From a virus (lineage: Duplodnaviria; Heunggongvirae; Uroviricota; Caudoviricetes): 16,930 nucleotides of DNA. The notes beneath the pieces were generated by a model, which made no database searches, had not been told where the DNA came from, and worked only from the letters and a program-made list of their open reading frames with translations. The stretch lies in the IMG/VR virus record IMGVR_UViG_3300000279_000019. One strand, given 5' to 3'. Below, piece after piece: positions 1 to 15,718 of the stretch (positions within the stretch are counted from its first letter, which is position 1; every line of letters starts with the position of its first letter). The translations under genes were made by a program, and so were the position numbers.

Positions 1-42
1 CTCTTTTGGCTTGGCAGTGTCTATTTGACGGGCATTGAGTTT
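1..42. repeat. Terminal direct repeat, copy 1 (identical to 16889-16930)
   Basis: ctcttttggcttggcagtgtctatttgacgggcattgagttt occurs at both window ends; on the minus strand it encodes KLNARQIDTAKPKE, i.e. integrase codons 2-15. Confidence 0.9.
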
Positions 43-45
43 CAC
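1..45 (-). other. int: 5' end of integrase gene (GTG start at 45..43 plus codons 2-15), contiguous with 16930 only if the molecule is circular
   Basis: Reverse complement of 1-45 reads GTG AAA CTC AAT GCC CGT CAA ATA GAC ACT GCC AAG CCA AAA GAG, preceded in frame by a TAG stop; the same codons precede the integrase body at the right end. Confidence 0.5.
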
Positions 46-298
46 TTGGGGGTATCTCCACTAAACTGAACAGCAAATCCCCTCAATTGCTTGTAGAGTT
101 TGGGGTACTTAAATAGACGTCAAAAGACTAAAAGGGGCATTAATATACTGATTATAAGAGGTTTTTAAATACTTGAGTAGACTTGGGGAGACGTTAGAAT
201 GGTGCGATAATAGGAACAAAACATAAACAAAAAATACATTGATATTTAATGATATTTTCATATTTCATTTTTATAGATACCCCCAAAAGTACCCCCAA
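46..298. repeat. Cluster of 11-12 bp GGGGGTA-type repeats in direct and inverted orientation; candidate integrase arm-type sites (attP region) or int promoter/operator
   Basis: TTGGGGGTATCT at 46-57 and its exact reverse complement AGATACCCCCAA at 275-286; TTTGGGGTACTT at 99-110 and near-inverse AGTACCCCCAA at 288-298; CTTGGGGAG at 182-190. Lies immediately upstream of the int start codon in the circular reading. Confidence 0.4.
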
Positions 299-956
299 TA
301 AATTTTCCCTTATCCCAAACCAGGCAAAAATCGACTATCTAGCACTCTTTTTCTTCGAGCCTCAGCCTCACCGGCAGGCAATGATGAAGGGCTGGTGGAT
401 GCCCAAGGATAACCACTAGCGTGAAGTATTTTTTATTTCGCGGGTGTGAAAATTTGACGAGGTGGGTAGTCACGAACAACTGGGTTACAGAGATTATACC
501 CGCCACCACCTATGTTAATGAGGGCAATTATTAGTTGATATACCCACGCTCGTTTTCGCTTAATAGCAGAGCGTGCACAAAATTCACATATTTCCGTCTG
601 CATTCATCTATCGACACAGAAATTCGAGATAGTGGATATGATGAAACAAATCAGTGCTGACATGTGAACATGTTTTCCCTACAAAAATGACTTAAAGCAG
701 TCCATGATTCGGATCTGAAACGCATAAGTTATGGCAGGAATCTTGTTGCACATGGATTACATGTCAATAGCAAGCACGTCTCTGAATGAAGCGTAATTTA
801 ACGCAGATATTATTGAAGCTGCTTAAGCTCATACAGATAAAATTGATAAAAAAATATAAATGCTCAACCTATCTCAAACAACGAGATGAATTAATAGCTT
901 GATGGGCAATAAAATATATAAATAAAAAACACAACATTTAATATTGTAAGACTATG

Positions 957-986
957 AGCAAGGGTGTTGATAATAACACCCTTGCT
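957..986 (-). terminator. Strong stem-loop immediately 3' of the 532-aa ORF (terminator-like, no clean U-tract)
   Basis: agcaagggtgtt / gataat loop / aacacccttgct: perfect 12-bp inverted repeat starting 4 nt after the stop codon at 990-992. Confidence 0.4.
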
Positions 987-989
987 TAA

Positions 990-2588
990 TTACCAATTAA
1001 AAATATAATCTTTTATTTTAAGATACATATCAACTTTCCCAGACCATTTTGATGCACTCTCTTTCATCTTTTCAATAACATCATCAATCAGTAAGTCTCT
1101 TCCTTTTACAATCAATTGATCATCATCAATACCCTCTGGTGCAAATTCATATATGTGCATGCTTAGATTAGACTTCTGAGTATGAGGGAATGAATCTTTT
1201 TCCACACACATATCAATAAACTCATTAATAGATAGTTCTTTCTGTTTACACATCATAAGTAATAATTCGAACTCATCAATTGTTATATAGTAAATTCTTT
1301 TTAGATCAATGGGGATACTATGATATTTTTCAGATAACTCAGTTGATAAATCAGGGTTAATAAAATCCTGCACAACCATTGCATTTGATATATGATGATC
1401 CCGATGCACCACAATTAACATTGAATCTTTCGAAGATGGTTTTCTCATCTCTATTTTATTTAAGTTAAAAGCACATTCCTGACCTTGATAAATCCCTTTA
1501 ATAAAACTCTTATTCAACCTTTCCTTTAGCAACTGAGCATTATTAGATGTTTTAACGAACTTTGCAGGCTCTATTGCCTTCGAGTCAATATAAACTATTG
1601 AATCTCCCTCTGAAATAACAAAATCTACGGACTTGCAATTTTTTATTGCATTATCACTATAAATCCTCTTAACCTCCCTTTCAGTCTTAAAGTTATAATT
1701 GTACTTATCAAGAAAGCGAGAAATATAAAGTTCCATCGTCTTACCAAATTTTTCTTTATAAGATTCCTTATAGACCTGCTTGAACAATTCTGGAACTAGG
1801 TTGACAAACCCTGACTTCATGATTCTTTTGCATAATATCACTACACCATCGCCATCTAAAAACATTGGTTTACTGAGGAATGGTGTATCTTCATAATACT
1901 CAGCGGTAATGTTTTTATCCAATTTATATGGGGCAATAAAATCTCTCACACCATCAATTTTTAAGCATGTTAATTCCAAAAATCTTTTCACTTGTTCCGG
2001 ACCAAATATCGGAACCAAGTTTATTATCAAGTGTTTAAATGGAATAACCTCTGATTCTATATCAGGATTAATACATGAAATAGCGGTAAAATAACATGCC
2101 ATTTTGTAATAGTTTTCCAAATGTAAACCAGTACATTCTAAAAACTTATCTTTATAATATGATTCATCATTCAAGCAATACCAAATATACTGTCTTGTTA
2201 ATGAATTGGCATTAAATTTATCAGTTGATTGATAAAGCAACTGATTTATCACCATTCGTCTAAGGCTTAGCATAACTTTATCATCAACGATTAAATTAGA
2301 TGCTTCTAGTTGCAAGTTATAGATTAAGTTGATAATATCAACAAAATCATTTTTACTCATTTCTTTTGCAGGCTTTTTTTCCTTCATGCAAAACTTCCAT
2401 TTCATTGCCAGATAGCAACACCAAGGGAAATTGGAAACAATACCCACCTCGACATCCCTTACTTTTTGGAAGTGTTCATAAAAATTTCTCAAAAAAGAAA
2501 CATCACTAAAATATGACAATCTTTTCTTAATCGCATCAACTTTTATAGAATATGACACTGGTGTCATTGTTTTTATTGCCACGCTCAT
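990..2588 (-). CDS. Hypothetical 532-aa protein, AT-rich cargo gene, no family recognised; possible PD-(D/E)xK-like motif
   Basis: Longest ORF in the window with ATG start and AAGG about 8 nt upstream; K/N/I/Y-rich composition from AT-rich DNA, in contrast to the roughly balanced backbone; segment VDFVISEGDSIVYIDSK resembles a D...(D/E)xK nuclease core; no Walker A motif seen. Confidence 0.75.
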   Translation of the reverse strand: MSVAIKTMTPVSYSIKVDAIKKRLSYFSDVSFLRNFYEHFQKVRDVEVGIVSNFPWCCYLAMKWKFCMKEKKPAKEMSKNDFVDIINLIYNLQLEASNLIVDDKVMLSLRRMVINQLLYQSTDKFNANSLTRQYIWYCLNDESYYKDKFLECTGLHLENYYKMACYFTAISCINPDIESEVIPFKHLIINLVPIFGPEQVKRFLELTCLKIDGVRDFIAPYKLDKNITAEYYEDTPFLSKPMFLDGDGVVILCKRIMKSGFVNLVPELFKQVYKESYKEKFGKTMELYISRFLDKYNYNFKTEREVKRIYSDNAIKNCKSVDFVISEGDSIVYIDSKAIEPAKFVKTSNNAQLLKERLNKSFIKGIYQGQECAFNLNKIEMRKPSSKDSMLIVVHRDHHISNAMVVQDFINPDLSTELSEKYHSIPIDLKRIYYITIDEFELLLMMCKQKELSINEFIDMCVEKDSFPHTQKSNLSMHIYEFAPEGIDDDQLIVKGRDLLIDDVIEKMKESASKWSGKVDMYLKIKDYIFNW

Positions 2589-3193
2589 AAAAAACCTTTT
2601 ATGATAAACATAGAGAAATATTTTATTTAAAAATTATCAAATACACGTTAATAAATATACATTTTTTAATTTTGCGTGCAACCCTATCCCCAATCAATAC
2701 AAAATATTGTGCACACAAAATTGAAGAAGCCTATAACTATAGGTGCCTACTGACACCTATCAAGAAACTTGTTCACCCCCGACACAATTTAATTTGGCGT
2801 AGCTCACAATGTTCTCCTCAGCACACCTACCCCCCACTTTATAGGACAGTTTTCATGCAGTACATGCATAAACAAAAGCTCATCAGTTCTGGTGGTTCCT
2901 CACCACGAACATGCAGATAATACCTCAAAACATCATGTAACAATGTTGGCATTACGCCACCAGCCACAAAAAAGCCCTACCCTTAGGCTTAATGTTTGGC
3001 TTGGCTGTTGGCTTACTATAACGCCCCGCTCACCGTCGCAGCCTGTTCGGTTTCCGCCACTGATACGGCCTCACATCATCATGCTGATAGATGTCGACGG
3101 GCTACCAGTACCATTTGCTCACCAACCCCATATTTTCCATGTTAATCTTCTCTTTCCACATGCTTTGTATGGTAATAAGCAAAAGGAAAAATG

Positions 3194-3448
3194 ATGAACA
3201 CTAAGGTGAAAGAAGCAGTAAAATGTTGGGCTTCTAGTCCAACGTGGTTTAGCAGGCATCCAATGGATACGGCGGAGTTCCGACGGGCTGTTTCAAATCT
3301 CAAGCGCATTACCCCTACCCCATCTTTCGAAGAAATCAAAGAAGCGATCATGTTCTTTGTTTCCGATGCGCCAACAATGCTAGGTACGCCGTCGGATATT
3401 CCTCAGGCGGTTCATGACTTCGCTGGAAAAATTTATAACAAGCTGTGA
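3194..3448 (+). CDS. Hypothetical small protein (84 aa)
   Basis: AAGGA at 3183-3187 with 6-nt spacer to ATG 3194 (an ATG at 3191 is also possible); TGA at 3446-3448; followed by a hairpin terminator. Only confident plus-strand gene in the left half. Confidence 0.55.
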   Translation: MNTKVKEAVKCWASSPTWFSRHPMDTAEFRRAVSNLKRITPTPSFEEIKEAIMFFVSDAPTMLGTPSDIPQAVHDFAGKIYNKL

Positions 3449-3454
3449 GCAAAA

Positions 3455-3475
3455 TGCGGGCTATCCCAGCCCGCA
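3455..3475. terminator. Bidirectional hairpin between convergent genes
   Basis: tgcgggct / atccc / agcccgca, an 8-bp GC-rich stem; A-run on the plus side gives a T-run after the hairpin for the minus-strand transcript. Confidence 0.5.
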
Positions 3476-3482
3476 TCCCTAA

Positions 3483-3665
3483 TTAACGCCGTAACTTGTT
3501 TGGCTTCGTCCATTGGTACGCCTTTTCGTTTTCCCGCCGCTGGTGGCGTTCCTGTTGCAGCACAACGGAAACAGGCGCTGAACACCTGTTAATTTTGCTT
3601 GCTGGTTGTTTGATTCCGGCAATGCTGCGGATCATCTCCAGCATATCGGCTTCGGTGATGGTCAT
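3483..3665 (-). CDS. Hypothetical small protein (60 aa), downstream partner of the 193-aa membrane protein
   Basis: ATG at 3665 preceded by AGGAAA with a 4-nt spacer (sequence taggaaacctATG); earlier in-frame ATGs at 3692 and 3686 lack an SD. Product MTITEADMLEMIRS..., basic C-terminus. Confidence 0.45.
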   Translation of the reverse strand: MTITEADMLEMIRSIAGIKQPASKINRCSAPVSVVLQQERHQRRENEKAYQWTKPNKLRR

Positions 3666-3714
3666 AGGTTTCCTATCAGCACTCATATCCAATTAATAAG
3701 TTCAATACAATGGA

Positions 3715-4296
3715 TTATCCCGTTTTAGTGACTAACCATTGCAGAATAACGATAATTAAATATGTTAATGTGCCAGTTCCAAGAAGTATTAATAATTGAT
3801 AGCAACGTAGGGCAATATTACTAATCGATTTTTGCATCACGATATTCACTGGCTCAGCCACACACTCTTTAGATCTTATCGATAGAATACTTGGAACTTC
3901 TCTATTTATTGATAATATTTCACATTGAATAGACTCACCAGGTGCAAGGCTTTCAAACTTGATAATATAGCGACCATCCTGTTCAATATTTTCTTCAAAA
4001 TGGTGGACAGGCCAAAAATTAATATGCATTGGCTTATAGTTAAAAACCAATGAGATATTAGTAGCACTTTCTCGCCCTTCATTAACAAGAATAATAGATC
4101 GTGTATACACCAACTGTGAATTAGATATTACCTCACCATTGGCATTCCGTAAGGGTTCATTGAGAAGAAAAGTAAATCCATGCTGATAACCATAGGATAA
4201 CTTTGCCTTGCTTTTAAATCTGTTATTCAGTATCCATGTTAAAATCGTTATAAAAAAAGAAAATAGTTCTTTCCCATAAAGACTAAAAAAACTCAT
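3715..4296 (-). CDS. Hypothetical membrane protein (193 aa) with N- and C-terminal hydrophobic helices, AT-rich cargo
   Basis: GAAGGA SD 6 nt before ATG 4296 (GTG at 4299 also in frame); hydrophobic stretches FSFFITILTWIL and LLILLGTGTLTYLIIVILQWLV flank a roughly 140-aa soluble domain; AT-rich like the 532-aa gene. Confidence 0.65.
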   Translation of the reverse strand: MSFFSLYGKELFSFFITILTWILNNRFKSKAKLSYGYQHGFTFLLNEPLRNANGEVISNSQLVYTRSIILVNEGRESATNISLVFNYKPMHINFWPVHHFEENIEQDGRYIIKFESLAPGESIQCEILSINREVPSILSIRSKECVAEPVNIVMQKSISNIALRCYQLLILLGTGTLTYLIIVILQWLVTKTG

Positions 4297-4430
4297 CACA
4301 CATTTCCTTCAGTAATCTGATTCTGCTGTCAAAGCTACCAGCACTATAGTCATTCATCCACATTGCGACAAGAAGGTTACAGCACGTCCAATCACACCTT
4401 AGGAAATCTTAGGGGGCTGGTTGACACTTT

Positions 4431-4687
4431 CCGGCTTAAGACCTTAATAAATCTTAATATCGCAGGTTGACACACTTGACACTTTTTCGCGAAAAACCTT
4501 AGCATTTCTAAGCATGGCAACTTGACATTTTTCGCGGTTTTTTCGGCTTTTTGACGTGGTAAATCTGGCACAAACCCAGTAATTGCGGGGCTTACAGCGA
4601 GGTTGACACTTTTTCGCGTTCAGAGTGTAAAGTGTCAACCTGGCAAGCTGTCAACCTGGCAAGCTGGCAAGCTGCTCAACTTGACAC
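4431..4687. repeat. Array of TTGACAC(TTTTTCGCG) repeats with a tandem 16-bp repeat; candidate binding-site array (packaging recognition or regulation)
   Basis: TTGACAC at 4431, 4467, 4476, 4603, 4681; TTGACATTTTTCGCG at 4522; TTGACG at 4551; inverted GTGTCAA at 4633; tandem gtcaacctggcaagct at 4634-4649 and 4650-4665 plus a partial third copy. No credible ORF spans it. Confidence 0.6.
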
Positions 4688-4696
4688 TTTTTGATG

Positions 4697-5224
4697 TCAT
4701 TGATGGTCTGATTTTTCCCACTCAGCCAGGGCGTTTAACCCGGCTTCACTCCATGATTCCGGTTCATCGGGATAATCACCTGCAACATAGCAGAGTTCGC
4801 AACGCAGCATACGAATTGCCAGCCTGGCATTACCTCGCAAATTGTATTTTTCAAAGTAATGCTGCCCTTCATCATCCTCAAGGCAGATAGCACCATCATC
4901 AAGAAAGTGCACTTCCCAGCCTAATTCCCCGGCTGCATACAGCACACGCTGCTGTATGCCCTCGTCCGTTACTGGCGCAGGAATTTTACCGTCTCTGGCC
5001 TTAACTGCTTTCCAGAACTCGCCCCATGTCATTTCCAGCGTTCTTTCTGGCCACATTTCAGAAATGGTGCCTTTCCCCTGTGCTGGTGGGCTGTTCCGCT
5101 GCTCTGTCGCTTCCACATCAATTTTTTTACCGGACATGACCACTTCGCCTTTCTCGAGCCAGTCGTAAACTGTCTGGCGGCTTACGCCTTTGTATTTGGC
5201 GTATTCGGCTTTACTCATCAACAT
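4697..5224 (-). CDS. DNA-binding protein with N-terminal lambda Nu1-like (terminase small subunit-type) winged HTH; possible packaging-redirection or regulatory protein
   Basis: GAGGTGA SD 5 nt upstream of ATG 5224; N-terminus SKAEYAKYKGVSRQTVYDWLEKGEV closely parallels Nu1 KKQLADIFGASIRTIQNWQEQGMPV; acidic C-terminal half. Confidence 0.55.
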   Translation of the reverse strand: MLMSKAEYAKYKGVSRQTVYDWLEKGEVVMSGKKIDVEATEQRNSPPAQGKGTISEMWPERTLEMTWGEFWKAVKARDGKIPAPVTDEGIQQRVLYAAGELGWEVHFLDDGAICLEDDEGQHYFEKYNLRGNARLAIRMLRCELCYVAGDYPDEPESWSEAGLNALAEWEKSDHQ

Positions 5225-5323
5225 GTAGCTCACCTCATGCATATACGATAAAAAATAATTTCATGCGGAAAGGGAATGCGTTGTGGGTATGGAGGAAAGG
5301 GGCAATAACCGCCCCTTACTGAT

Positions 5324-5596
5324 TCAGTTGCGCCAGGATGGCTGGCTAAGCGTGGTTTTCATTACATCATTGACGACCTGTTTTACGATTTCTGTGTTGG
5401 CAGTCGTGCTTTCAACATCAACAAAGCCATAATCGCCAATTTCCACCGTCAGGGATTCCAGTTTCTTCCCTAGAGCATCAGGCAACTCTCCACTGAACCG
5501 ATGCTGAAGATTTTCCACCAGCAACGCCCTGAATGCCTCGCTGTTCTCTTTTTTCTGCCATAGCTGGCGTTTATCCACTCTGATATTTAATTTCAC
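5324..5596 (-). CDS. Hypothetical protein (90 aa)
   Basis: GTG start with AGAGGTGA SD 5 nt upstream; GTGA overlap with the stop of the upstream 55-aa ORF (translational coupling). Confidence 0.5.
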   Translation of the reverse strand: MKLNIRVDKRQLWQKKENSEAFRALLVENLQHRFSGELPDALGKKLESLTVEIGDYGFVDVESTTANTEIVKQVVNDVMKTTLSQPSWRN

Positions 5597-5760
5597 AGTC
5601 TCACCTCTTTAAGTGCCTTATCCATCAGTTGCCGAGCGATAACATGAATCGACGGTGCCACACCAAGCACAGATTTCTGACGCTCTTCGTCCTGGATGCG
5701 TTGCAGGGCTTCGATCTGCCTCCGGGAAAGTAAAACTGGCTTTACTCCGTGATTTTTCAT
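5593..5760 (-). CDS. Small putative DNA-binding protein (55 aa), Arc/ribbon-helix-helix-like guess
   Basis: ATG at 5760 preceded by AGGGA; product MKNHGVKPVLLSRRQIEALQRIQDEERQK...; the longer 107-aa version upstream is Cys/Asn-rich and looks spurious. Confidence 0.5.
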   Translation of the reverse strand: MKNHGVKPVLLSRRQIEALQRIQDEERQKSVLGVAPSIHVIARQLMDKALKEVRL

Positions 5761-5924
5761 GATGATCCCTTCTGAATGACAATAATTGCAATTATTGCAC
5801 AAATTGAAATGATACCAGAGACAATTGCAATAAATGAAACGAAAAGCATCAATAAACCAACCTTCGGCACTGAATGCTCTGATTTTTCTGCAAAGGTATG
5901 GCAGATGTTGGTGCATGCAAACAT
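5757..5924 (-). CDS. Possible small hydrophobic membrane peptide (start uncertain)
   Basis: ORF ends with ATGA overlap onto the 55-aa gene; C-terminal 30 aa MLFVSFIAIVSGIISICAIIAIIVIQKGSS is one TM helix; candidate starts GTG 5996, ATG 5924, ATG 5849 all have weak or no SD. Confidence 0.3.
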   Translation of the reverse strand: MFACTNICHTFAEKSEHSVPKVGLLMLFVSFIAIVSGIISICAIIAIIVIQKGSS

Positions 5925-6038
5925 AAAGGCAATAGCAGAAGAAGCAGCGGGGAGTGAAAAGGGGAAGTTTTTATAAATACACGATTGTCGCCTCACTGCA
6001 GGTTAACAGCCACAAGCTCCATGATAATAACTTGTTAA

Positions 6039-6362
6039 TTATTTCATCAGATTTTTCATTATTTGCGCGATTGAGTACACAAGCAAAAACTCGGCAGCCG
6101 CAAGAGTATAAAAAACATAAATTCGCTTAGCCCACCGACGATGAAAGAACTCCTCAGCATGGCCGGATGTTCGAGATACAAGCCATGCACCTACTGCACA
6201 CAGAGCAGGTGCAATGAGCACAGTTATAAACCAGATTGTGATGCCCATCCCATGCCTACTGATAATAGCCATTGGTATTGCAAAAATGAATGTTAGAGCA
6301 GCATTAGCTAATAGAATATCTTTTAAAGTATTTTCAATTAGTTTTGCTAGATTATCTTTCAT
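6039..6362 (-). CDS. Small inner-membrane protein (107 aa, about 3 predicted TM helices)
   Basis: ATG 6362 with GGGGGA SD; hydrophobic segments LLANAALTFIFAIPMAII, ITIWFITVLIAPALCAVGAWLV, IYVFYTLAAAEFLLVYSIA. Confidence 0.65.
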   Translation of the reverse strand: MKDNLAKLIENTLKDILLANAALTFIFAIPMAIISRHGMGITIWFITVLIAPALCAVGAWLVSRTSGHAEEFFHRRWAKRIYVFYTLAAAEFLLVYSIAQIMKNLMK

Positions 6363-6393
6363 CTAATCCCCCACGTTGAACATTAATATATAA

Positions 6394-6414
6394 AAGCCCC
6401 TTACTAAGGGGCTT
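6394..6414 (-). terminator. Intrinsic terminator-like hairpin downstream of the lipoprotein gene
   Basis: aagcccctt / act / aaggggctt GC-rich stem; on the minus strand it is followed by TTTTATATATT. Confidence 0.5.
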
Positions 6415-6426
6415 TGCACGGATTGT

Positions 6427-7569
6427 TTAAAGGGAACTTTTTTTCGCCCCTTCAATTTCTGCCTGACAAATTTCGTCATTTGTAAATGAGTACTGCAGAT
6501 AGACATATCCCTGAGTGGAATTGTTCGCTCTGGCCTCAATAGATATAGTATCAATATTGTTTTTTAATGGTATTTCTTTTGTTCCCTTCCATGTGGCAGA
6601 TAAGAAGCGTTCTTTTTTGTTTAGCCCCCTCATCCAGTCCTGAGGATCTTTCCAAATTGAACCAGCCAGCAAAAAGTCTGTAGTATCAGCCTTTCCATAC
6701 AGAGAACTTAAAGAATTACTCAATTCTTCAAACTTGGATTTAAGAGCCAATCCATAGCTATCAGTATCAATATTTTTTCCTAAAGCCCGTATTTGACATA
6801 AACCAGCTTTCGGGGAGATCAGCAAACCATACATTTCAAAATCTGCGTTTTGCTTCGGTAATTTATCAGAAGTATACAGATTCACACTGTCTGGTAGTGG
6901 CTTGAGCTTAGCACCGATCATATCTTCGATGTTTTTCTGTGTAAGACCGGCTTCTAAGCCAAACGGACCATCCGCTGGCGGGAGTAAAGGAAGTTGCTCT
7001 TGGGAATTTTTGGCTGTTACTTCCGTTTCAGTACTGTTTTTTGCGTCATTAGCTTGTACTGATGCCAGCTTAACTTCAGCGAGGCCATACTTGGCTGTGA
7101 GGTACTTTTGCTGCAACATTGCCATGGTCTGCTCTTCAGTGGCAACAGTAGATAATTTTAGTACCTTTATCAGACCACCACTATACTGACGAGCATCAGC
7201 TTTGGCTTCGTTGATTTTTGCATCTAAGCTGTCAATTTCAGTTTTAATTGAAGCCGCAAGCTCAGGATCAGGTTTTACTCCAGATACAACAACATCAATT
7301 TTGGCACCTGATTCAATAGCATTAATACGCTGTTCCAAAAGCGCTTTATTAGTTCCTAATATTTCCAGTCTTGCTGTTGTCAGATTTTTTATCAACCCAC
7401 CAGAAAACTGCTGGTCAACTTCCTTAGCTGCTGATATTTCACCTTCCGTTTGCGACAGTTCAGCTTTAAGAGCAGCTACTTCCTGTTTCTGTTCTGGAGT
7501 TAACTCTTCTGGCCCACATCCGGTTAACATTACTATACCGACTAATGTTGCAATTAAAGTTTTATTCAT
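6427..7569 (-). CDS. Lipoprotein (380 aa) with coiled-coil N-terminal half and internal repeat
   Basis: Signal peptide MNKTLIATLVGIVMLTGC with lipobox L-T-G-C; repeated motif Q(F/Y)SGGLIK(N/V)L; long alpha-helical, charged region; C-terminal domain of unknown type. Confidence 0.75.
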   Translation of the reverse strand: MNKTLIATLVGIVMLTGCGPEELTPEQKQEVAALKAELSQTEGEISAAKEVDQQFSGGLIKNLTTARLEILGTNKALLEQRINAIESGAKIDVVVSGVKPDPELAASIKTEIDSLDAKINEAKADARQYSGGLIKVLKLSTVATEEQTMAMLQQKYLTAKYGLAEVKLASVQANDAKNSTETEVTAKNSQEQLPLLPPADGPFGLEAGLTQKNIEDMIGAKLKPLPDSVNLYTSDKLPKQNADFEMYGLLISPKAGLCQIRALGKNIDTDSYGLALKSKFEELSNSLSSLYGKADTTDFLLAGSIWKDPQDWMRGLNKKERFLSATWKGTKEIPLKNNIDTISIEARANNSTQGYVYLQYSFTNDEICQAEIEGAKKSSL

Positions 7570-7703
7570 ATCCCTATTCCAAATGAAAATATTCAGATTA
7601 ATCTTATCAGGAACCCAGATGCAATTGAATATTCATCTGCTCAGCAACGTAGTAGATTTCCTCAGAAAGCATCAACAAAAAACCAAGAGAATCCCATCCT
7701 CTG

Positions 7704-7991
7704 TTACTGACTACAATTGTTCTTTTTTTGGTATTTCCTGAATGCCTCACCATTGGGCTGATGTAATCCCATCCCGGCATGTGCCCGGCTGATGGTTTCG
7801 CGCATCTCCCCGAAATTATCCTGCCTTGCTGGTGGGCGTGCTGCCTTGTGGATACATTCCGCGCGACGTTTTGCCGCCTGTTCCCGTGCCTTGTCATCAT
7901 TCGCCAGCATGATGACCTCAGCCCACCGCGCCGCCGCTCTCCGGTACAGACCACGCGCTTCCAGTGCTTCCGCTTTGCTGTCGTGAATCAT
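7704..7991 (-). CDS. PerC-like small transcriptional regulator (95 aa)
   Basis: ATG 7991, 4-nt overlap with the FinO-like gene stop; segment AEALEARGLYRRAAARW and C-terminal MGLHQPNGEAFRKYQKK resemble what I recall of the PerC/Pch family; assignment from memory only. Confidence 0.5.
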   Translation of the reverse strand: MIHDSKAEALEARGLYRRAAARWAEVIMLANDDKAREQAAKRRAECIHKAARPPARQDNFGEMRETISRAHAGMGLHQPNGEAFRKYQKKNNCSQ

Positions 7992-8530
7992 GCGCCTATT
8001 GTCTCCTTTGCTGCCCGGCGCTGGCGTTTGCGCTTCTCATTCAGCGCCACCAGCCGCGTTTCTGCGTCCTGTTGTTCCTGTGGTGTCACCTCGCCGCACG
8101 GCTGGCCTTTCAGGTCGTAGCGTACCCCACCAGCCATTAAGGCGCGGTAATAGCGCGGACACTGCGCATAAGATGCCAGCGTCGCACGCAATGCCCCTGG
8201 CCCGAATGCCAGCCCCCTGACGGCGAGATCCTGCATCAGGTCGTCGAATATCCCCACCTTAAGCGGCTTCAGTGCTTCCCGGCTGAATAAGTCAGGCCAC
8301 AACTCAGTGAGGCGGTTAACGCGCCTGCGGTTTTTGCGCTGGCGTTTGGTCATATGCCGCCACGGTGTCGCCCCTGTAGGCTTCTGCTGCGCTTTCTGGT
8401 TACCGGGCATCACTTTATGCGCCGATGTGGTTTTATCCTGCTCCTGTGCCGCCTGCGTCGTTTTCTGCGGCGTGCCGTAAATACCTTTTGGTTTTCTGTT
8501 AATGGTCAGCTTAGTCATGCTTTGCCCCAT
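7988..8530 (-). CDS. FinO/ProQ-domain RNA-binding protein (180 aa) with basic N-terminal extension
   Basis: Segment LTELWPDLFSREALKPLKVGIFDDLMQDL...LRATLASYAQCPRYYRALMAGGVRYDLKGQPCGEVTPQE aligns by eye with the ProQ N-terminal domain (LAERFPHCFS..ARPLKIGIFQDL...LRSALRLYTSSWRYL...RVDLDGNPCGELDEQ); alternative start ATG 8518. Confidence 0.7.
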   Translation of the reverse strand: MGQSMTKLTINRKPKGIYGTPQKTTQAAQEQDKTTSAHKVMPGNQKAQQKPTGATPWRHMTKRQRKNRRRVNRLTELWPDLFSREALKPLKVGIFDDLMQDLAVRGLAFGPGALRATLASYAQCPRYYRALMAGGVRYDLKGQPCGEVTPQEQQDAETRLVALNEKRKRQRRAAKETIGA

Positions 8531-8539
8531 CGTTACAAC

Positions 8540-8874
8540 TGTCTACCAACTGTCTACCGATATAATTGATTGATTTATTTAATGTTATTAACACATAACA
8601 AAAAAACAATCTGCAAACTGTCTACCAACGGTCTACCGCATTAATACATTGATAATTAATGATTTTTACTAAATGGTAGACAGTGTAGACAGTTAAAAGA
8701 GAAATTTAAAAAATGCCCCCTTAACTATCTGTTTTTTATATACCCCCCGTGGTTTAGGAATATAGAAATAACTGTCTACCTCTCTACCACATTGAAAATA
8801 TCTTTATAATTCAAAATATTAATTGGTAGATGGTTGGTAGAGGGTTAAGTGAATCTGTCTACCAACCGTCTACC
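8540..8874. repeat. Origin of replication: iteron array of (T)GTCTACC octamers in both orientations with an AT-rich spacer
   Basis: TGTCTACC at 8540, 8551, 8619, 8773, 8856; GTCTACC at 8631, 8868; inverted GGTAGACA/GTAGACA at 8675, 8685; GGTAGA at 8825, 8836; pairs spaced 11 bp; AT-rich block 8560-8615; lies directly 3' of the primase gene. Confidence 0.7.
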
Positions 8875-8901
8875 TTTACGTTTCAGCTTATAAATTTCGT
8901 A

Positions 8902-10707
8902 TTATGTTCTGTCGTTAATCCCTGTAGCTGCTGGCAACCAGCCATCAGCATCATCATCTAACAGAACATTTGTTATCACTCGCCCTTTATCCGGGCCTTT
9001 AGTGCATTTAGCCCGCTTATACTCCTTTCCGTATTCCGCCATAGCTCCTGGCATATCAGTACCAAAGCGTGTCAGTGATACTGGTTTTCCCAGGCCATGC
9101 GCTGACATATAGGCTAAATAAGCATGATACAGGTATCGCCTCGGGCTAAATGGCACTATTTCCGCATTGCCCACCATCATTCCTTCACATTTAACCAACG
9201 ACATCAGATAGCCGCAAAAGTCCACCAGTGAATCACCTTCGCGCTTTATCAACAGCGCTTCTTCTGATTTTTGCTGCTCATAAAGTAGTCTTTTAGCTTC
9301 GTCCTGGTCGGTAAATCGTGTTAGCAAATGGCGAATCACTACCGCCAGTTCGCCTTCTATCTTTTCCGCCAGCATGGGATCGCGTTCGTTCTCCGGTACG
9401 ACCTCAGAGAAATTAAATATCACCCTACGACGCGAGATCCCCCCGCTTCGGTCACTGAATGACATGGCGTTATTGTTTACCGCAAGCACTACTGCCGGAA
9501 TACGTGTGGAGTAGGGGGCTTTATGTTTCGGATCAATTGCCACCTTGTCGCCGCCAGTAATTGCCTTAATTCCTGCACCATCGCCAGCGTAGCGAGTCAT
9601 ATCCGGCATGATAATCAGCGAAAAGCCAACTACTAACGCGCGTTCCCTTGCGTCTTCCAGAGCCTTCATGCTTGCCGATACTGTGTTGGCCTTACCCGCC
9701 AGCATGGTACAAATCTCAGCCATCACACTTTTACCGCTTCCGCCTGGGCCTGTTACCTCAAGGAATAACTGCCAGTCGTACCGGTTCGCCAGCACCATGA
9801 ATAATGCCGCCAGTACGCGATCAGCTTTACGATCATTATCTGCCACCGAACGACGCAGCCACTTCCAGAAATTCGGCGCATGTGTTGCCAGCGTTTCCCC
9901 CTCTGCTGGTGGGCTGAACGGTAATTCACTGGCATTTAACAACCAGTCATTTTTGTTATGCTCCCGAAAATTTCCCGTCCGGGTATCAAATACCCCGTTA
10001 CTGAATCCAATAAGATTCCTGTCTGCCCCGCCCATAACAGGCAGGCTCAATTTCATTGTGTCTACGGCAAATTTAATGGCGTTTTGCGAATAACTGATTC
10101 CAGCATCAATAAAAATCTTCGCCATAGACCGCTGGAGTTCCTTATCAGATACAGGCACCCAGACAATTCCGTTGTAATGGTGAACTACATCAGAATCATC
10201 ATTTATAGCCAGTGCTCTTCCATAATATTCAAGTAACACTTCCCCTCTCTGGCTGGCTCCCATCTGATTTAGTGCTGGCCTGGATAGGTCAATATTTTTT
10301 GTGGCTAATTTCATCGCTGAAACTTCCCCACTCTCTGCCTGTTCGCGGATCCGTTGCAGGTAGTCGCGCCAGTTTTCCGGCTCCCGGTCGGTGATACCTT
10401 TGTATAATTTCGCGTCCTGTACACCAGCCAGCGCCAGCTTTTCAGCAATAGCATTGATCTGGATTGGCTCTATCTCCCCCGCGAGATAGACACGCGCAAA
10501 GCGGCGTTCATCGTCGACAATGCGGATATTCGCCAGGTCTGCCAGTTGCTTTGGCCCCAGGTAAACAGGAGGCACGTTATCGCCGTGTTTTCGTCCTTCG
10601 CTTTCAATCCAGTGTTGAGCATGGGCGTAAGCATCCGTCCCGGCAAAAATGATTACCTCGGTGAATTTATCCTTCGGCTGATATTTTAAATTCGGTGCGT
10701 TTTTCAC
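8902..10707 (-). CDS. P4 alpha-like primase/helicase (601 aa)
   Basis: GTG start with GGAGG SD 6 nt upstream; Walker A GPGGSGKS; D5_N-like FSNGVFDTRTG motif; general architecture typical of phage/plasmid P4-family primases; iterons immediately downstream. Confidence 0.85.
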   Translation of the reverse strand: MKNAPNLKYQPKDKFTEVIIFAGTDAYAHAQHWIESEGRKHGDNVPPVYLGPKQLADLANIRIVDDERRFARVYLAGEIEPIQINAIAEKLALAGVQDAKLYKGITDREPENWRDYLQRIREQAESGEVSAMKLATKNIDLSRPALNQMGASQRGEVLLEYYGRALAINDDSDVVHHYNGIVWVPVSDKELQRSMAKIFIDAGISYSQNAIKFAVDTMKLSLPVMGGADRNLIGFSNGVFDTRTGNFREHNKNDWLLNASELPFSPPAEGETLATHAPNFWKWLRRSVADNDRKADRVLAALFMVLANRYDWQLFLEVTGPGGSGKSVMAEICTMLAGKANTVSASMKALEDARERALVVGFSLIIMPDMTRYAGDGAGIKAITGGDKVAIDPKHKAPYSTRIPAVVLAVNNNAMSFSDRSGGISRRRVIFNFSEVVPENERDPMLAEKIEGELAVVIRHLLTRFTDQDEAKRLLYEQQKSEEALLIKREGDSLVDFCGYLMSLVKCEGMMVGNAEIVPFSPRRYLYHAYLAYMSAHGLGKPVSLTRFGTDMPGAMAEYGKEYKRAKCTKGPDKGRVITNVLLDDDADGWLPAATGINDRT

Positions 10708-10994
10708 TTCTTACCTCCCGCAACCAACATTGCCCGGATTTTTTTAATATTCGTGGCTGCACGTCTCGCCACTGCCTGTTGTTTGTTTTCCACCAGAATA
10801 AAATCACGCTCAAACTGACGGCGCGGCATTACGCAGTCATATTCGTAAGCCTCACGGCGGTAGGTGATATTGCCTGGCGTAACGTGACGAATAACCACTC
10901 GTCCCCCACGTCTGGTGTCGCGGTAAATATCTCCGTGTCTGATTTCAGGCCGAGAGAGACCGCTGGCAGTAAAGCCAGAATTTTTCCTTTTCAT
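10704..10994 (-). CDS. Hypothetical basic protein (96 aa), last small ORF before primase
   Basis: ATG 10994 with AGGAAAA SD; stop overlaps the primase GTG (GTGA coupling); Arg/Lys-rich. Confidence 0.5.
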   Translation of the reverse strand: MKRKNSGFTASGLSRPEIRHGDIYRDTRRGGRVVIRHVTPGNITYRREAYEYDCVMPRRQFERDFILVENKQQAVARRAATNIKKIRAMLVAGGKK

Positions 10995-10998
10995 GGTT

Positions 10999-11199
10999 TT
11001 ATTTTCCTGTCAGCAGTTCCGGTTTTATTTCTGCACGAATACAGAGTTCAGAAAAAAATTCAGGAGAACCCACAATCTCATTACTTTTCAGTCGGCATTG
11101 TGATTTCACTTTTTCTTTATCAAGGTAAACCAGCACGCGTCCGGTGAAATCATCTGGCACATTAAGCACTACGGGTACATGCGCTTCATGATTATGCAT
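10999..11199 (-). CDS. Hypothetical protein (66 aa)
   Basis: ATG 11199 with GGAGGA SD; 8-nt overlap with upstream ORF. Confidence 0.45.
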   Translation of the reverse strand: MHNHEAHVPVVLNVPDDFTGRVLVYLDKEKVKSQCRLKSNEIVGSPEFFSELCIRAEIKPELLTGK

Positions 11200-11425
11200 G
11201 GCTTACATCCTCCAGAGATTTTCTTCTGTAACGCGTCTCTGCCACATATTCAGCATAGTCCGACGCAATACTAAGAATCATTTCACCCTCTGACTTGTAG
11301 CCACTGGTATTGATAAGAAAATATGCAGCTTTCATCATGTCAGCAATGCTCAACAATGCGCCCGATGTATCTTCCGGTGCGCCATCAAACTCCTGTTTCA
11401 GGGAATTAAAACGATCATCACGCAT
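11192..11425 (-). CDS. Hypothetical acidic protein (77 aa)
   Basis: ATG 11425 preceded by a G-rich SD; overlaps neighbours on both sides. Confidence 0.5.
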   Translation of the reverse strand: MRDDRFNSLKQEFDGAPEDTSGALLSIADMMKAAYFLINTSGYKSEGEMILSIASDYAEYVAETRYRRKSLEDVSHA

Positions 11426-11783
11426 GTTTACCCCCCTGAATGACCTGATAACCGCAACTGGTCAGCAATTCGATAAATTCCGGCAGTGTGCCGAAACAGC
11501 AATCATCACGCAGACGTTCGCAGGATACTTCAACGCCGTTTTCGTAGTGACTCACCATACACCCGGTAAAATGCAGATCATCATCGTGATGGCACGTTGA
11601 CGGCTTAATCAGTCGCGCACGTTCCGCCAGTTCCAGCAATGCTTCAACGCTTCCGGCAATTGCACCATCCGGCAGGTGATAATTACTTACCACGCGTCCA
11701 TTCTCCACGTTGACCAGTAGCTGCCCGGAAAATATCTCGTCAAACTGAATGCTGTTAAGGTCAGAAATTGACAGGTTATGCAT
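11418..11783 (-). CDS. Hypothetical protein (121 aa)
   Basis: ATG 11783 with AGGAGG SD 6-7 nt upstream (the track ORF starts further up at 11801 without an SD); product MHNLSISDLNSIQFDE... Confidence 0.55.
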   Translation of the reverse strand: MHNLSISDLNSIQFDEIFSGQLLVNVENGRVVSNYHLPDGAIAGSVEALLELAERARLIKPSTCHHDDDLHFTGCMVSHYENGVEVSCERLRDDCCFGTLPEFIELLTSCGYQVIQGGKHA

Positions 11784-12000
11784 GGTGCACCTCCTGTACA
11801 TCAGCCATGATAATTTTTCCGGCCTTATCCAGTGCCTGATCGGCTTTCAGCTGCACAAATGCTAAATAATGGGAGATGCATTCTGATTCTCTGGCTGCGT
11901 GTTTATGCGCCACACCAGCGATAGCAGAAATCTCAATAAGTGAATCCATCAGCGTTTTGATAGCGTCTACCGCTGCATCAGGCCATGTTGCATTACACAT
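11776..12000 (-). CDS. Hypothetical protein (74 aa)
   Basis: ATG 12000 in an ATGTGTAA overlap with the upstream gene stop; coupled to the next gene by ATGCATAA. Confidence 0.5.
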   Translation of the reverse strand: MCNATWPDAAVDAIKTLMDSLIEISAIAGVAHKHAARESECISHYLAFVQLKADQALDKAGKIIMADVQEVHHA

Positions 12001-12358
12001 GCTCCACCTCCTGGCGAATACGGGCAGCGAATACCATCACGCAGCCATCAGGAGATTGCTGGCGTGCTTCCTGTTCGCTGGTGGCCTCGATGTGAATCAC
12101 GCGCGGTTGTGCCGTACTCAGGGCGATAAAACGCCAGATAAAATTGTTTTCGCATTTCTGAATAAACAACGTGTTTTCTTCGCGCCCTTTCCATGTTGCC
12201 GAGATATAGCCCATGTCATTGAGCATCTCGCAGGCATCAACCAGCGTATCGGCGGCTACATGAACAGTGTTTTTACCGTCAGCCATGCAATCACGGTGCA
12301 CCGCCAGGAAGGTGTATATAAATTTAGGGTGAGTTTGGGTATGCTGTGCCCCAGCCAT
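11993..12358 (-). CDS. Hypothetical protein (121 aa), first gene of the replication operon
   Basis: ATG 12358 with GAGGT SD about 5 nt upstream, located at the C-terminal end of a 512-aa open frame whose upstream part I consider spurious; product MAGAQHTQTHPKFIYTFLAVHRD... Confidence 0.5.
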   Translation of the reverse strand: MAGAQHTQTHPKFIYTFLAVHRDCMADGKNTVHVAADTLVDACEMLNDMGYISATWKGREENTLFIQKCENNFIWRFIALSTAQPRVIHIEATSEQEARQQSPDGCVMVFAARIRQEVEHV

Positions 12359-12447
12359 AATCGTTACCTCATTTAACGGTTTGGTTAGACGCCCCGCTAC
12401 TGCCGCAAACAGTTCGGGGCGTTGTCGTTTATATCCTCTTACTGAGG

Positions 12448-12523
12448 TGTGATTTAAATTAAATTTAACTGAATCACAGGTCAAGTATTTTTTGTGATTC
12501 TTTTTTGTGTATACTGAATCACA
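12448..12523. promoter_or_regulatory. Two dyad-symmetric operators TGTGATT-N17-AATCACA in the divergent promoter region
   Basis: TGTGATT 12448-12454 / AATCACA 12472-12478 and TGTGATT 12493-12499 / AATCACA 12517-12523, 45 bp centre to centre; TATACT -10-like hexamer at 12510-12515; sits between the divergent RHH-like gene and the replication operon. Confidence 0.55.
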
Positions 12524-12545
12524 TCTTTTGTTTAGGAGAATGCAC

Positions 12546-12851
12546 ATGGCAAAAAACACTATCAACGACAAATCAAAACAGATTTCAATTCGTATCCCAC
12601 ATGATGCTTTTGAAGGCATGGAATCCGTAAAACTGGACGGCGAAAGCAACGCCGGATTCATAGTAACCGCCATGCGTGGTGAGATCGCCCGCCGCCAGGC
12701 AGAAGGAAGCGGAGAAAATCCCCTAGTTTCTTCGCTCAATGCACTGGCGCAGGTGGAAAAAATCGGAGTCAAAGCTGTCGAGGAGATCGGGCAGCTCGTC
12801 ACCGTCGCACGTGAAGAACTCCAGCGCCGCAAGGCCAAAGAATCAGAATAA
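12546..12851 (+). CDS. Putative ribbon-helix-helix-type transcriptional regulator (101 aa), candidate master repressor of the element
   Basis: AGGAG SD 8 nt upstream of ATG 12546; N-terminal KQISIRIPHDAFEGM resembles an RHH beta-strand/helix start; only plus-strand gene here, divergent from the replication operon and adjacent to the dyad operators. Confidence 0.55.
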   Translation: MAKNTINDKSKQISIRIPHDAFEGMESVKLDGESNAGFIVTAMRGEIARRQAEGSGENPLVSSLNALAQVEKIGVKAVEEIGQLVTVAREELQRRKAKESE

Positions 12852-13523
12852 TAACTATCATCGCCGTGGTGTGAGGAACTCCGGCGCATTGCTTTACAGG
12901 TACACAGAATGACCAACAAAGAATCGACCAATACACCATCACCGGCACGGAAAAGACAGCGCAGAAAGATAGCGTACGAATATGAGTCAGACAGATTCGC
13001 GCCCTGTGCGTTTATCCTTGAGAAATTCCTTAAAGAGTACAGGCGCACAAAAATGGGGTCGCATACCTGGAAAACATCGCGGCATGGCAATGTTAAAGAG
13101 CAGGAATAGCCCACCAGCAAGCCAGCACACTGATCACATTGCCCACCAGCCGCAAATCTGGCATTGTTGGCGATGTGTTCAAGTGTGTAGCTTTCCCACT
13201 GGTGGCCCTCTGCGGTCGCCTTTGTTTTATCCAGAACGAAATTAGACATCAGATTGATCATCACCTTGCGACCTGACAAAATCGCATCAGTCGCGCCACC
13301 AGCAAAATTTTTTGCTTTCCGGACAGCGTGACCAACGACATTTTGCAGCAAAATATTCTGCATTTCTGGCGTGCTGTAGTAACGGTGATCAGCGCCTTCA
13401 CTCTGTGCGACCACAACGCTATAATCTGCCTCGTAGACAGTAAGCAATATGGCGCAGTAGGCTATTCGTTCACAAAGGCGCTCCGGCAACGGGGCGCTTT
13501 CTCTTTTTGTAACGGTCAGAGCG

Positions 13524-14372
13524 TTACACATGGCTGTTTTCCTCCATGCGACGGGCTAACCAACGCTGCGAAAGACGAATTAATTCAGCTTTCCGCTGGT
13601 GGTAGTCCAGGCCTAACTCAATCAGCGTGATATTGCTCTGCTCAAGGTAAGAAAGGTGCTCAAGCTGCAACGTGCTCATGTGGTCGCGTGGTTCGCCTGT
13701 GATGCCGTTCGCCTGCGTCCACTGTTTTGCAGTCATGCCACCCAGCACGATACGCGCCAGCATATTGGCTTCCGTGGTGTAGTGGTGCTGGAGTGTGTTT
13801 TTACCCAGTTCAGCCCGGTACGCCTCCAGCGCGGCACACATCGGCTTAAAGTAGCTGGCAACGGAGATACGGGCTTTCAGTTCCCGGCGTAACGCTGCGG
13901 AACGCACTGGCGCTACCTTGTGTAGCTCCTCCTCGCATTTGATGAAGTACTGACGAACGGCGCGGCCCTGTTCGGTGCGCTCGACCATCGCCAGTTCTTT
14001 CGCCATGTTCGTGGAGATCAAATAGTCTTCACTGCGACGATCACCGCCGCGCTTTGTTGTCCAATCAAAATCAAACTGTTCAATATTTACACTTTGGTTC
14101 CCCCGTTTCGGGGAATCAAAGTACAAATTATCTACAACTTCAAAATCCACGCCCTTTTTAAATCCGTACTCATCAATGCGTCCTTTAATCCAGGTTGTGA
14201 AATCACGCTTCACACCCAGCGCCTTATGCAACGCTCTGGCGCTAACAATATTGGTTTCACGTCCGCCAATAACGCCGGAAATAACCGGGATAATTTCGCC
14301 GAAATTTTGCAGATTCTGGTTTTCAGGCCGAACGAAGCCCTGCCCCTGTACGGGCGTTTTTCGCTGTTTCAT
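13524..14372 (-). CDS. AntA/AntB-type antirepressor-like protein (282 aa)
   Basis: ATG 14372 with AGGAG SD; segment IIPVISGVIGGRETNIVSARALHKALGVKRDFTTWIKGRIDEYGFKKGVDFEV and later MAKELAMVERTEQGRAVRQYFIKCEE match the AntA-family pattern as I recall it. Confidence 0.65.
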   Translation of the reverse strand: MKQRKTPVQGQGFVRPENQNLQNFGEIIPVISGVIGGRETNIVSARALHKALGVKRDFTTWIKGRIDEYGFKKGVDFEVVDNLYFDSPKRGNQSVNIEQFDFDWTTKRGGDRRSEDYLISTNMAKELAMVERTEQGRAVRQYFIKCEEELHKVAPVRSAALRRELKARISVASYFKPMCAALEAYRAELGKNTLQHHYTTEANMLARIVLGGMTAKQWTQANGITGEPRDHMSTLQLEHLSYLEQSNITLIELGLDYHQRKAELIRLSQRWLARRMEENSHV

Positions 14373-14450
14373 AAAAACTCCTGCTATCGAATTAAGTTAC
14401 TTTTTATTTGCTGGTGGATAGTTGGGGCTTCTGGCCCCGTAGCCATTTAA

Positions 14451-14648
14451 TCAGGTAGCTGTTCCGCGTGATTCCGCAATACGCTGATTAATCCACTCGT
14501 CAATTTCACTCTCAACGAAAGCAATAGCTCGCGAGCCAATTTTAACTGATGCAGGAAATTTACCTTGCCCCATAAGGCGATAAATCCATGCCTTGCTATA
14601 TCCAGTTCTACGCTGAACTTCCGTTAAACGAATAAGAGAGTTTGCCAT
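14451..14648 (-). CDS. alpA: AlpA-family regulator / excisionase (65 aa)
   Basis: AAGGTGA SD; LIRLTEVQRRTGYSKAWIYRLMGQGKFP...VESEIDEWINQR aligns with E. coli AlpA ILRLPAVIQKTGMARATIYDWL...IEAEIDEWLSQR. Confidence 0.8.
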   Translation of the reverse strand: MANSLIRLTEVQRRTGYSKAWIYRLMGQGKFPASVKIGSRAIAFVESEIDEWINQRIAESRGTAT

Positions 14649-14850
14649 ATATTCACCTTGTAACGTCTATAAAGGTGTACATAGCTTGCATTAAGAAAAG
14701 TGATATTTATAGATGCTTACCATTATGAATGGCGAATACCATTTCAGTGAAATAGCTCCACCTTTTTTTAATAATGGCGTTTACTATTTTAAGTATCATG
14801 CTGACGTGAAACACGAAGAAAAATTACTGTTCTTACGATTTAATCTGCAT

Positions 14851-14888
14851 TGGTGGTTACTTTTTTTTGAAAGGAAACCACCATTTTT
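14851..14888 (+). terminator. Hairpin plus T-run on the plus strand in the alpA / 238-aa intergenic region
   Basis: tggtggtt / 17-nt loop / aaccacca followed by TTTTTCTGG; no credible plus-strand CDS upstream; a possible sigma70-like promoter TTGCAT...TATAGA lies near 14680-14715. Confidence 0.35.
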
Positions 14889-14903
14889 CTGGAATAGCGA
14901 CCA

Positions 14904-15620
14904 CTATTTAACTTTTTGTTTTTTTGGTCTTCTACCAATACGCTTCAGATGTTCAGGCCTTAAAATCAGATTCACAGCCCTAGCAACATTAGAACCCGCC
15001 CCCCTTTTTTTCAAATATTCAAGTACCTCATGCTCTGTCGGAGCCGTCTGTGGGTCATCTGGGTCATACGTCGACCATAGTTCTCTTATAGCATCCTGCA
15101 CATACTCCAACCCATCACTCTTATGCCCATAAGTACACAAATACTCGTCAGGATTAATTACCTGATGAGATGATTCAATGATTGCTGGCGGATTAACTTC
15201 CTTAACAGGTATAGGGCGAGGGCATCTCGCAAAATCAACGCTCTCATTTTTTATCCACTCATATAAAGAATGGCGACTAATTAAAGTTTTATCCTTGCTT
15301 ATCTCATATGCACGATCGGTCAGTTGCGCTGATGTCAGACGTTTGTACTCAATATCACAAACATTTCCCCAATTATCGTATTCAACTATTTCAGAGGTAC
15401 ATTCAACAGGAGTTAAGACACCACGACGGATGGCTGTTACCATTCCATTAGCCAACCCCCATGCCATTTTCCAACGTTCATGTTTATTATCTCTGACATG
15501 TTCAAGAGTAGGGTAATCATAAGGATCAATTCCGGCCAACAATAAAGCGGCCTGGGTGATAGAAAACTCCTGTACTGTTCGCCAGTGGGATAAGTCAGGA
15601 ATGTTTTCCACAATTGGCAT
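14904..15620 (-). CDS. Hypothetical protein (238 aa) between int and alpA
   Basis: ATG 15620 with GGGGGAG SD (the track M at 15635 is a TTG codon); basic C-terminal tail RIGRRPKKQKVK; no family recognised. Confidence 0.6.
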   Translation of the reverse strand: MPIVENIPDLSHWRTVQEFSITQAALLLAGIDPYDYPTLEHVRDNKHERWKMAWGLANGMVTAIRRGVLTPVECTSEIVEYDNWGNVCDIEYKRLTSAQLTDRAYEISKDKTLISRHSLYEWIKNESVDFARCPRPIPVKEVNPPAIIESSHQVINPDEYLCTYGHKSDGLEYVQDAIRELWSTYDPDDPQTAPTEHEVLEYLKKRGAGSNVARAVNLILRPEHLKRIGRRPKKQKVK

Positions 15621-15718
15621 ATTCTCCCCCTTCAAGCGGTCTAATGTTAAGGCCGAGCCAGCTCTGTTTGCATCAGCCTTTTTAGGTGCTCAAAGTCTAC
15701 TACTGTATACTCAACCAG

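Follow-up and report, generated by a model that had tools for sequence, protein, structure and literature searches.

The gapS1 locus

In this work, we analyzed a 16,930-nucleotide stretch of DNA assigned to the Caudoviricetes (IMG/VR record IMGVR_UViG_3300000279_000019), hereafter the window, with the focus on one open reading frame (ORF) at 990..2588. Its 532-amino-acid (aa) product was assigned to the GapS1 family of anti-phage proteins, and the gene, gapS1, lies at one end of a satellite element. An initial annotation, made from the sequence letters without database searches, had described the ORF as a large orphan in the cargo position, and proposed a single-gene defence or a nuclease. The gene and the signals around it are as follows:

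990..2588, minus strand: gapS1 coding sequence, 532 aa, ATG to stop (ORF list and translation)
957..986, minus strand: 12-bp hairpin (sequence and RNAfold)
2736..2763, minus strand: promoter-like TTGATA-16-TATAGT, 10/12 matches, ~150 nt upstream of the ATG (consensus scan)
2972..2990, minus strand: terminator-like hairpin with T-run, upstream of gapS1 (consensus scan only)

The same coding sequence coordinates are present in the RefSeq annotation of near-identical genomes. The ORF has a GC content of 30.9%, whereas 2900..16930 has 45.9% and the window as a whole 43.8%; the low value stays at ~0.30 over 750..2750, which bears out the AT-richness noticed at first. Stop codons would make up ~7.8% of random codons at the composition of the ORF, and arithmetic from composition gives a chance of ~1e-19 for a 532-codon open frame, so the frame cannot be accidental. 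It is not the longest one in the window, as had been stated, because the primase ORF at 8902..10707 encodes 601 aa. A Walker A motif was looked for in the 532-aa protein and none was found, in line with the reported lack of a P-loop.

The flanks of gapS1 (215..989 and 2589..~2970) are non-coding, and the Rfam scan of the window returned no RNA family. The perfect hairpin described behind the gene was recovered; it starts 3 nt past the stop codon, with a 12-bp stem, a 6-nt loop and a local fold energy of -20.1 kcal/mol. It has no T-run (U-tract) behind it and was not called by the terminator scan; possibly it acts as a terminator or as an mRNA 3' stabiliser. The site at 2736..2763 is a candidate for the gene's own promoter, and a mere candidate, since shuffled sequence would be expected to yield at least as many promoter-like sites as this region has. 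The terminator-like site at 2972..2990 could insulate gapS1 from the backbone genes. Both sites are compatible with gapS1 being an independent transcription unit.

Assignment to the GapS1 family

The protein matched the NCBIfam model NF047931 (antiphage_GapS1) with an E value of 6e-132 and 440.7 bits, well above the curated cut-off of 320 bits, and residues 20-478 covered profile positions 1-455 of 455. By this profile match, the protein is a full-length representative of GapS1/GAPS1, a published family. Other collections gave less. No significant match was obtained with Pfam, in which the best hit, TPD (PF14811), scored 19 bits where 27 are required, or with PADLOC-DB 2.0.0, whose 2023 models do not include the GapS1 family. 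A sequence search of the Protein Data Bank (PDB) and a profile search with the 33-sequence alignment described below found no chain at E below 0.2, so no member of the GapS1 family has a solved structure. In PHROGs, the protein matched the unnamed family phrog_14259 (9e-18).

When window 600..3000 was compared by megablast with 5426 complete E. coli genomes, 6 chromosomes matched at 99.2-99.9% identity, and four of these already carry the label "gapS1: GapS1 family protein" from the RefSeq Prokaryotic Genome Annotation Pipeline (PGAP). An exact-sequence look-up placed the protein on 10 contigs and in a 271-member 90% cluster whose representative bears the GapS1 name. The identity of the gene was thus already known to the RefSeq pipeline, and the view of it as a novel orphan outside any known family has to be given up. 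The guess of a single-gene defence system fared better, as the confident match is to a defence family, and not to a characterised non-defence one, and a near-identical homologue has been tested. No obligatory partner is apparent, as the flanks are non-coding and the neighbours vary between loci. With an exhaustive profile search, 1228 clusters (50% identity) were obtained at E values of up to 1e-3, which makes this a large family.

GapS1 homologues (22% identity, 93% coverage) were also observed at the extreme left end of the 35.5-kb genomes of Klebsiella phages, in Kp4845-2 and in 16 further phage records (OK490395.1, 142..1611, for example). This fits the remark that most GAPS1 homologues occur in K. 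pneumoniae (Mahata et al., bioRxiv 10.1101/2023.03.28.534373).

Catalytic motif and predicted structure

The segment VDFVISEGDSIVYIDSK, which had been singled out as a possible PD-(D/E)xK nuclease core, corresponds to residues 321-337. The corresponding features are:

1578..1682, minus strand: catalytic motif E303...D322...D335-S-K337 (gapless alignment to GAPS1)
1680..1682 (E303), 1623..1625 (D322), 1584..1586 (D335) and 1578..1580 (K337), minus strand: codons of the motif
1254..1703, minus strand: predicted PD-(D/E)xK (restriction-endonuclease-like) nuclease domain, approximate, residues ~296-445

The cloning-primer sequence of GAPS1 of Vibrio, the founder of the family, gave 0 matches when scanned against genome contigs, and the exact founder was absent from the best 150 of the 1228 family representatives. 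Its active-site segment was therefore reconstructed by translation of the published mutagenesis primers, which gave ...DNKIQGKVV-D313-FLHQRNGTSIFI-D326-A-K328-GVEPNQKI. The window protein reads ...KNCKSV-D322-FVISEGDSIVYI-D335-S-K337-AIEPAKFV. The two motifs align without gaps, with D322 equivalent to D313 and K337 to K328, and thus the core picked in the initial annotation is the validated active site of GAPS1.

Conservation was examined in an alignment of the window protein with 32 homologues of 24-88% identity (33 sequences). D322, K337, A338 and P341 are invariant in 33/33, so that both equivalents of the GAPS1 residues D313 and K328 are kept throughout. At position 335, 29 sequences have D and the other 4 have E, and E303 is kept in 32/33. 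A sensor in the N-terminal half would be expected to make that half more variable than the nuclease domain; in the comparison, the entropy per segment was alike throughout the protein, with the last ~40 residues and residues 141-225 somewhat more variable.

The AlphaFold2 model built on the same alignment has a predicted local distance difference test (pLDDT) score of 87.9 and a predicted template modelling (pTM) score of 0.88. In this model, the first ~295 residues are mainly helical, an alpha-beta-beta-beta-alpha-beta core follows, and the C-terminal region is helical again. E303 opens a helix, D322 immediately precedes strand 323-327, and strand 330-337 carries D335 and K337 at its end. The modelled C-terminal domain has a restriction-endonuclease-like fold and resembles known nucleases. 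On the alignment and the model together, the core of GapS1 is predicted to be a PD-(D/E)xK nuclease, and both the motif and the structural check that had been proposed came out in favor of the first assignment.

Tested homologues and the window allele

The family was defined in a study of GMT (Gamma-Mobile-Trio) islands by Mahata et al. (bioRxiv 10.1101/2023.03.28.534373). The founder, GAPS1 of Vibrio parahaemolyticus RIMD 2210633 (WP_005477165.1), consists of a single protein whose PD-(D/E)xK domain is C-terminal, and its defence was abolished by D313A or K328A. T7 mutants escaping GAPS1 map to the major capsid protein Gp10, and Gp10 alone, together with Vibrio GAPS1, caused growth arrest with viability kept. 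Three cloned E. coli homologues, including EGQ2075554.1, which was cloned alone (Table S4), protected against diverse coliphages. Furthermore, it was reported that a native homologue in E. coli strain ZH142-A is needed for defence and that growth arrest occurs at high multiplicity of infection. The identity between Vibrio GAPS1 and the E. coli homologues is just 24-29% (Mahata et al., bioRxiv 10.1101/2023.03.28.534373).

Our comparison with EGQ2075554.1 covers the first 380 nt of its synthetic insert (Supplementary Table S3), in which there is a single mismatch to the window ORF (G247A, V83I). P0003, the commonest I83 allele of the 90% cluster, was seen on 68 contigs; four of its 532 residues are not those of the window protein (V83I, N159S, R308K and K507N), and no catalytic residue is among them. 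From the 380-nt match and these four differences, the window allele is very probably at least 99% identical to this already tested anti-phage homologue. Protection against phage by the window allele itself would rest on the report for EGQ2075554.1. The two other cloned homologues, EJP5250929.1 and WP_152927281.1, share 18-23% identity in their N-terminal parts and by sequence belong to different subgroups. The accessions WP_001526660, WP_135543965 and WP_250854948 were not found in the readable portion of the supplements of Mahata et al.

Satellite element and variable cargo region

The locus with 99.9% identity in strain K56-43-un (L001) gives the context of the gene. There, the element starts at tRNA-Thr(cgt) beside proA, and the order is integrase, a 243-aa protein, AlpA, AntA, an Icd-like gene, several small genes, a D5-type primase, ProQ/FinO, PerC, a lipoprotein and, as the last gene, gapS1. 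Two features delimit the gapS1 end:

200..215: distal att copy tggtgcgataatagga, 16 nt, equal to the tRNA-Thr(cgt) 3' end with a 1-nt deletion (compared with the intact tRNA-Thr in L001)
317..2968: AT-rich gapS1 cargo module, in none of three related satellites (blastn of window 1..6000 against L002 to L004)

The att copy marks the far (attR) end of the satellite, and the element measured from it is ~16.9 kb. The functional integrase (15719..>16930) adjoins tRNA-Thr at the opposite end, ~13 kb from gapS1. Accordingly, the statement that gapS1 sits next to int and att holds for the distal att copy and for the truncated integrase remnant of a neighbouring island, but not for the functional integrase. 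AlpA matched PF05930 (2.4e-19), the primase has D5_N/DUF5906/Pox_D5 domains, and no virion structural proteins were detected in the Pfam and PHROGs scans. An integrase, AlpA and a primase, a size of ~10-17 kb, att at a tRNA gene and no structural genes are the features of a phage-inducible chromosomal island (PICI) of the Gram-negative type. In this setting, gapS1 is best described as cargo at the attR end of an int-alpA-primase (PICI-like) satellite at E. coli tRNA-Thr.

Two other types of element were considered and rejected. For a P4-like satellite, with psu, delta, sid, alpha and epsilon as core genes, the first three were absent from the Pfam and PHROG scans of the larger backbone ORFs and from the RefSeq annotation, and just the Icd-like gene and the D5-type primase are shared in kind with P4. 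For a GMT island, GmtY, GmtZ and GmtX were missing from the window and from the annotated 38-kb locus, and the element has a single tyrosine integrase at the tRNA.

The comparison with sister satellites shows where the cargo module begins and ends. Homology of L002 to the window resumes at 2969, and L003 and L004 share just 198..297/316 and then the sequence from 4419/4465 onward. What lies between attR and the conserved backbone is variable: QML220601 has nothing there, 94EC (L003 4703..6659) has PARIS (AriA 3e-43, AriB 4e-22), and ST361 (L004 5122..6729, NZ_CP103704.1) has at its attR end two adjacent uncharacterised genes of 259 and 275 aa, in a position corresponding to window ~317..4418. 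Since sister satellites lack gapS1 or carry PARIS, gapS1 is exchangeable cargo and not a function of the satellite life cycle, and the variable slot suggested initially is real. The ST361 two-gene cassette gave no significant Pfam, NCBIfam or PADLOC matches and is more promising than gapS1 as an undescribed defence system.

Proposed mechanism and alternatives

We hypothesize, with high confidence, that gapS1 is a single-protein anti-phage system carried by a PICI-like satellite and acting in the following steps. GapS1 would be made from its own promoter and stay inactive. During infection, it would recognise a phage structural protein, which for the Vibrio founder is the T7 major capsid protein Gp10. 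Recognition would turn on the C-terminal PD-(D/E)xK phosphodiesterase, with D322, D335 and K337 together with E303, and cleavage of a nucleic-acid target would arrest cell growth, leading to dormancy and not to death. It would mean that the arrested cell keeps the phage from finishing its cycle. Family membership, the conserved motif, the nuclease fold and the cargo position were shown in this analysis; the capsid trigger and dormancy would extend to the window allele by homology.

Several points weigh against this proposal. For the remaining 70% of the gene, the identity to EGQ2075554.1 comes by way of the P0003 allele. The capsid trigger and dormancy are known from the Vibrio protein, and because this is just 24-29% identical to the E. 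coli homologues, the window allele may sense something else. For no member of the family does the GapS1 literature examined report a substrate or a nuclease activity shown biochemically. In addition, the PADLOC 2023 models, lacking the family, add no support, and the PDB searches offer no solved member.

The first alternative is that GapS1 acts as a restriction-type nuclease, which degrades phage DNA directly, without protein sensing or dormancy. However, growth arrest by Vibrio GAPS1 with the T7 capsid protein alone occurs without phage DNA, and point mutants of the capsid escape. Moreover, neither a methyltransferase nor another self-protection partner lies beside gapS1. We consider direct restriction quite unlikely.

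It could also be argued that gapS1 serves the satellite, by helper interference or by island stabilisation and addiction, and that defence against other phages is incidental. Satellites interfere with helper phages, gapS1 stands at the end of an int-alpA-primase satellite, and this satellite encodes a TerS-like helix-turn-helix (HTH) protein. However, GapS1 homologues are found in settings as different as GMT islands and Klebsiella phage genome ends, sister satellites that share the backbone do without gapS1 or carry PARIS instead, and a cloned gapS1 homologue protects E. coli on its own. A role in the service of the satellite is therefore very improbable. Finally, gapS1 could be a decayed or silent copy, inactive in this strain, as carriers are so few among the complete E. 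coli genomes, the neighbouring island is degraded (truncated int, IS1 pseudogene) and the satellite primase of K56-43-un is frameshifted, but the chance of this is almost negligible, since the ORF is intact and full length (homologues 525-534 aa) with all catalytic residues present, and its sequence is kept nearly unchanged in the six genomes and exactly on ten contigs.

Returning to gapS1 as an anti-phage system, a further idea follows from its location. A defence that senses capsids is carried by a satellite whose own transfer probably needs a helper capsid, and the GapS1 allele might be tuned to ignore the helper capsid protein and to fire on competing phages. The satellite would thereby discriminate between helper and non-helper. 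We put this forward as a tentative idea, unlikely, though with some chance of being right.

Comparison with known defence systems and significance

The closest known system is Vibrio GAPS1 together with EGQ2075554.1, which belongs to the same family by hidden Markov model, is likewise a single protein, and has D...(D/E)xK at equal spacing. The genomic settings differ: Vibrio GAPS1 sits in the GMT island VPaI-6, whereas the window gapS1 sits in an int-alpA-primase satellite at tRNA-Thr. Upx (PDB 9wuf; Nat Commun 2026, PMC13099982) is another single-protein defence nuclease, with a dual PD-(D/E)xK. It has 1212 aa and two nuclease domains, in contrast to the 532 aa and one recognisable core of GapS1. 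The GapS1 model is similar to the Upx structure over 341 residues, with an aligned identity of just 8-11%, and neither sequence nor 33-sequence profile searches with GapS1 recover Upx at E below 0.2. Judged from the model, Upx would be a structural analogue or a distant relative at best, of a different family from GapS1. PARIS (AriA/AriB) resembles GapS1 in being an abortive or growth-arrest type of defence and satellite cargo on the same backbone. It is, however, a two-gene system of an ATPase and a TOPRIM/DUF4435 protein and has no sequence relationship to GapS1. The PD-(D/E)xK catalytic fold of GapS1 is also that of restriction enzymes of type II/IIS and of nickases (N.BspD6I, HindIII, the FokI cleavage domain). 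GapS1 differs from these in lacking a cognate methyltransferase and any known sequence specificity, and in that the founder is activated by a phage protein.

There is no novelty in the gene itself, as what appeared to be an orphan to a reader without tools is a named, experimentally supported defence family. The reasoning of that reader was nevertheless sound, because AT-rich cargo at a satellite end and a D...DxK motif sufficed to predict a defence nuclease correctly. That satellites carry defence cargo is an established principle. Here, gapS1 was located on an E. coli int-alpA-primase satellite, in the variable region at the attR end, a hotspot in common with PARIS. The main text of Mahata et al. 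makes no mention of satellites, PICIs or prophages, and carriage in a satellite hotspot and the extended structural similarity to Upx are the sole points that go beyond it. The confident GapS1 model and the 341-residue similarity to Upx may help toward the substrate, the sensor domain and the structure of the family. The end-of-satellite hotspot, with PARIS, GapS1 and ST361-type two-gene cassettes, would be a productive place for new systems.

Other features of the satellite

At the attR side, window 1..215 duplicates the 5' end of the integrase gene, the region upstream of int and a 16-nt stretch from the tRNA-Thr 3' end. The copies of the int start and of its upstream region, in 1..~206, belong to the truncated integrase of an adjacent vat/MarR island. 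These duplications point to tandem islands at thrW, the satellite first and then the vat/MarR island with its truncated integrase.

Repeats were observed in two regions. The first is intergenic and lies where homology to the sister satellites resumes (~4476..4704): TTGACACTTTTTCGCG occurs three times, with starts at ~4476, 4603 and 4689, and an 8-bp tandem repeat (TGGCAAGC) is present in five copies at ~4633..4688. The second comprises three iteron-like copies of AACTGTCTACCAAC(T/G)GTCTACC at ~8535..8888, just 3' of the D5-type primase gene, and this is probably the replication origin of the satellite. The primase ORF on the minus strand is intact in the window, and is annotated as frameshifted in K56-43-un (L001 26301..28107).

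The TerS-like protein is encoded at 4697..5242 on the minus strand. It has 181 aa, and its N-terminal HTH shows a weak match to the terminase small subunit (phrog_57, 2e-6) as well as to excisionase-type HTH models. It may be a packaging-redirection factor of the satellite. A probably spurious ORF of 512 aa (11993..13531, minus strand) is unannotated in the RefSeq relatives and overlaps several small genes that are annotated there (Icd-like, YlcI/YnfO). The GC content peaks at 0.60 in 7750..8500 over the PerC and ProQ/FinO genes, compared with 0.30 for gapS1, and the composition of the element is a mosaic.
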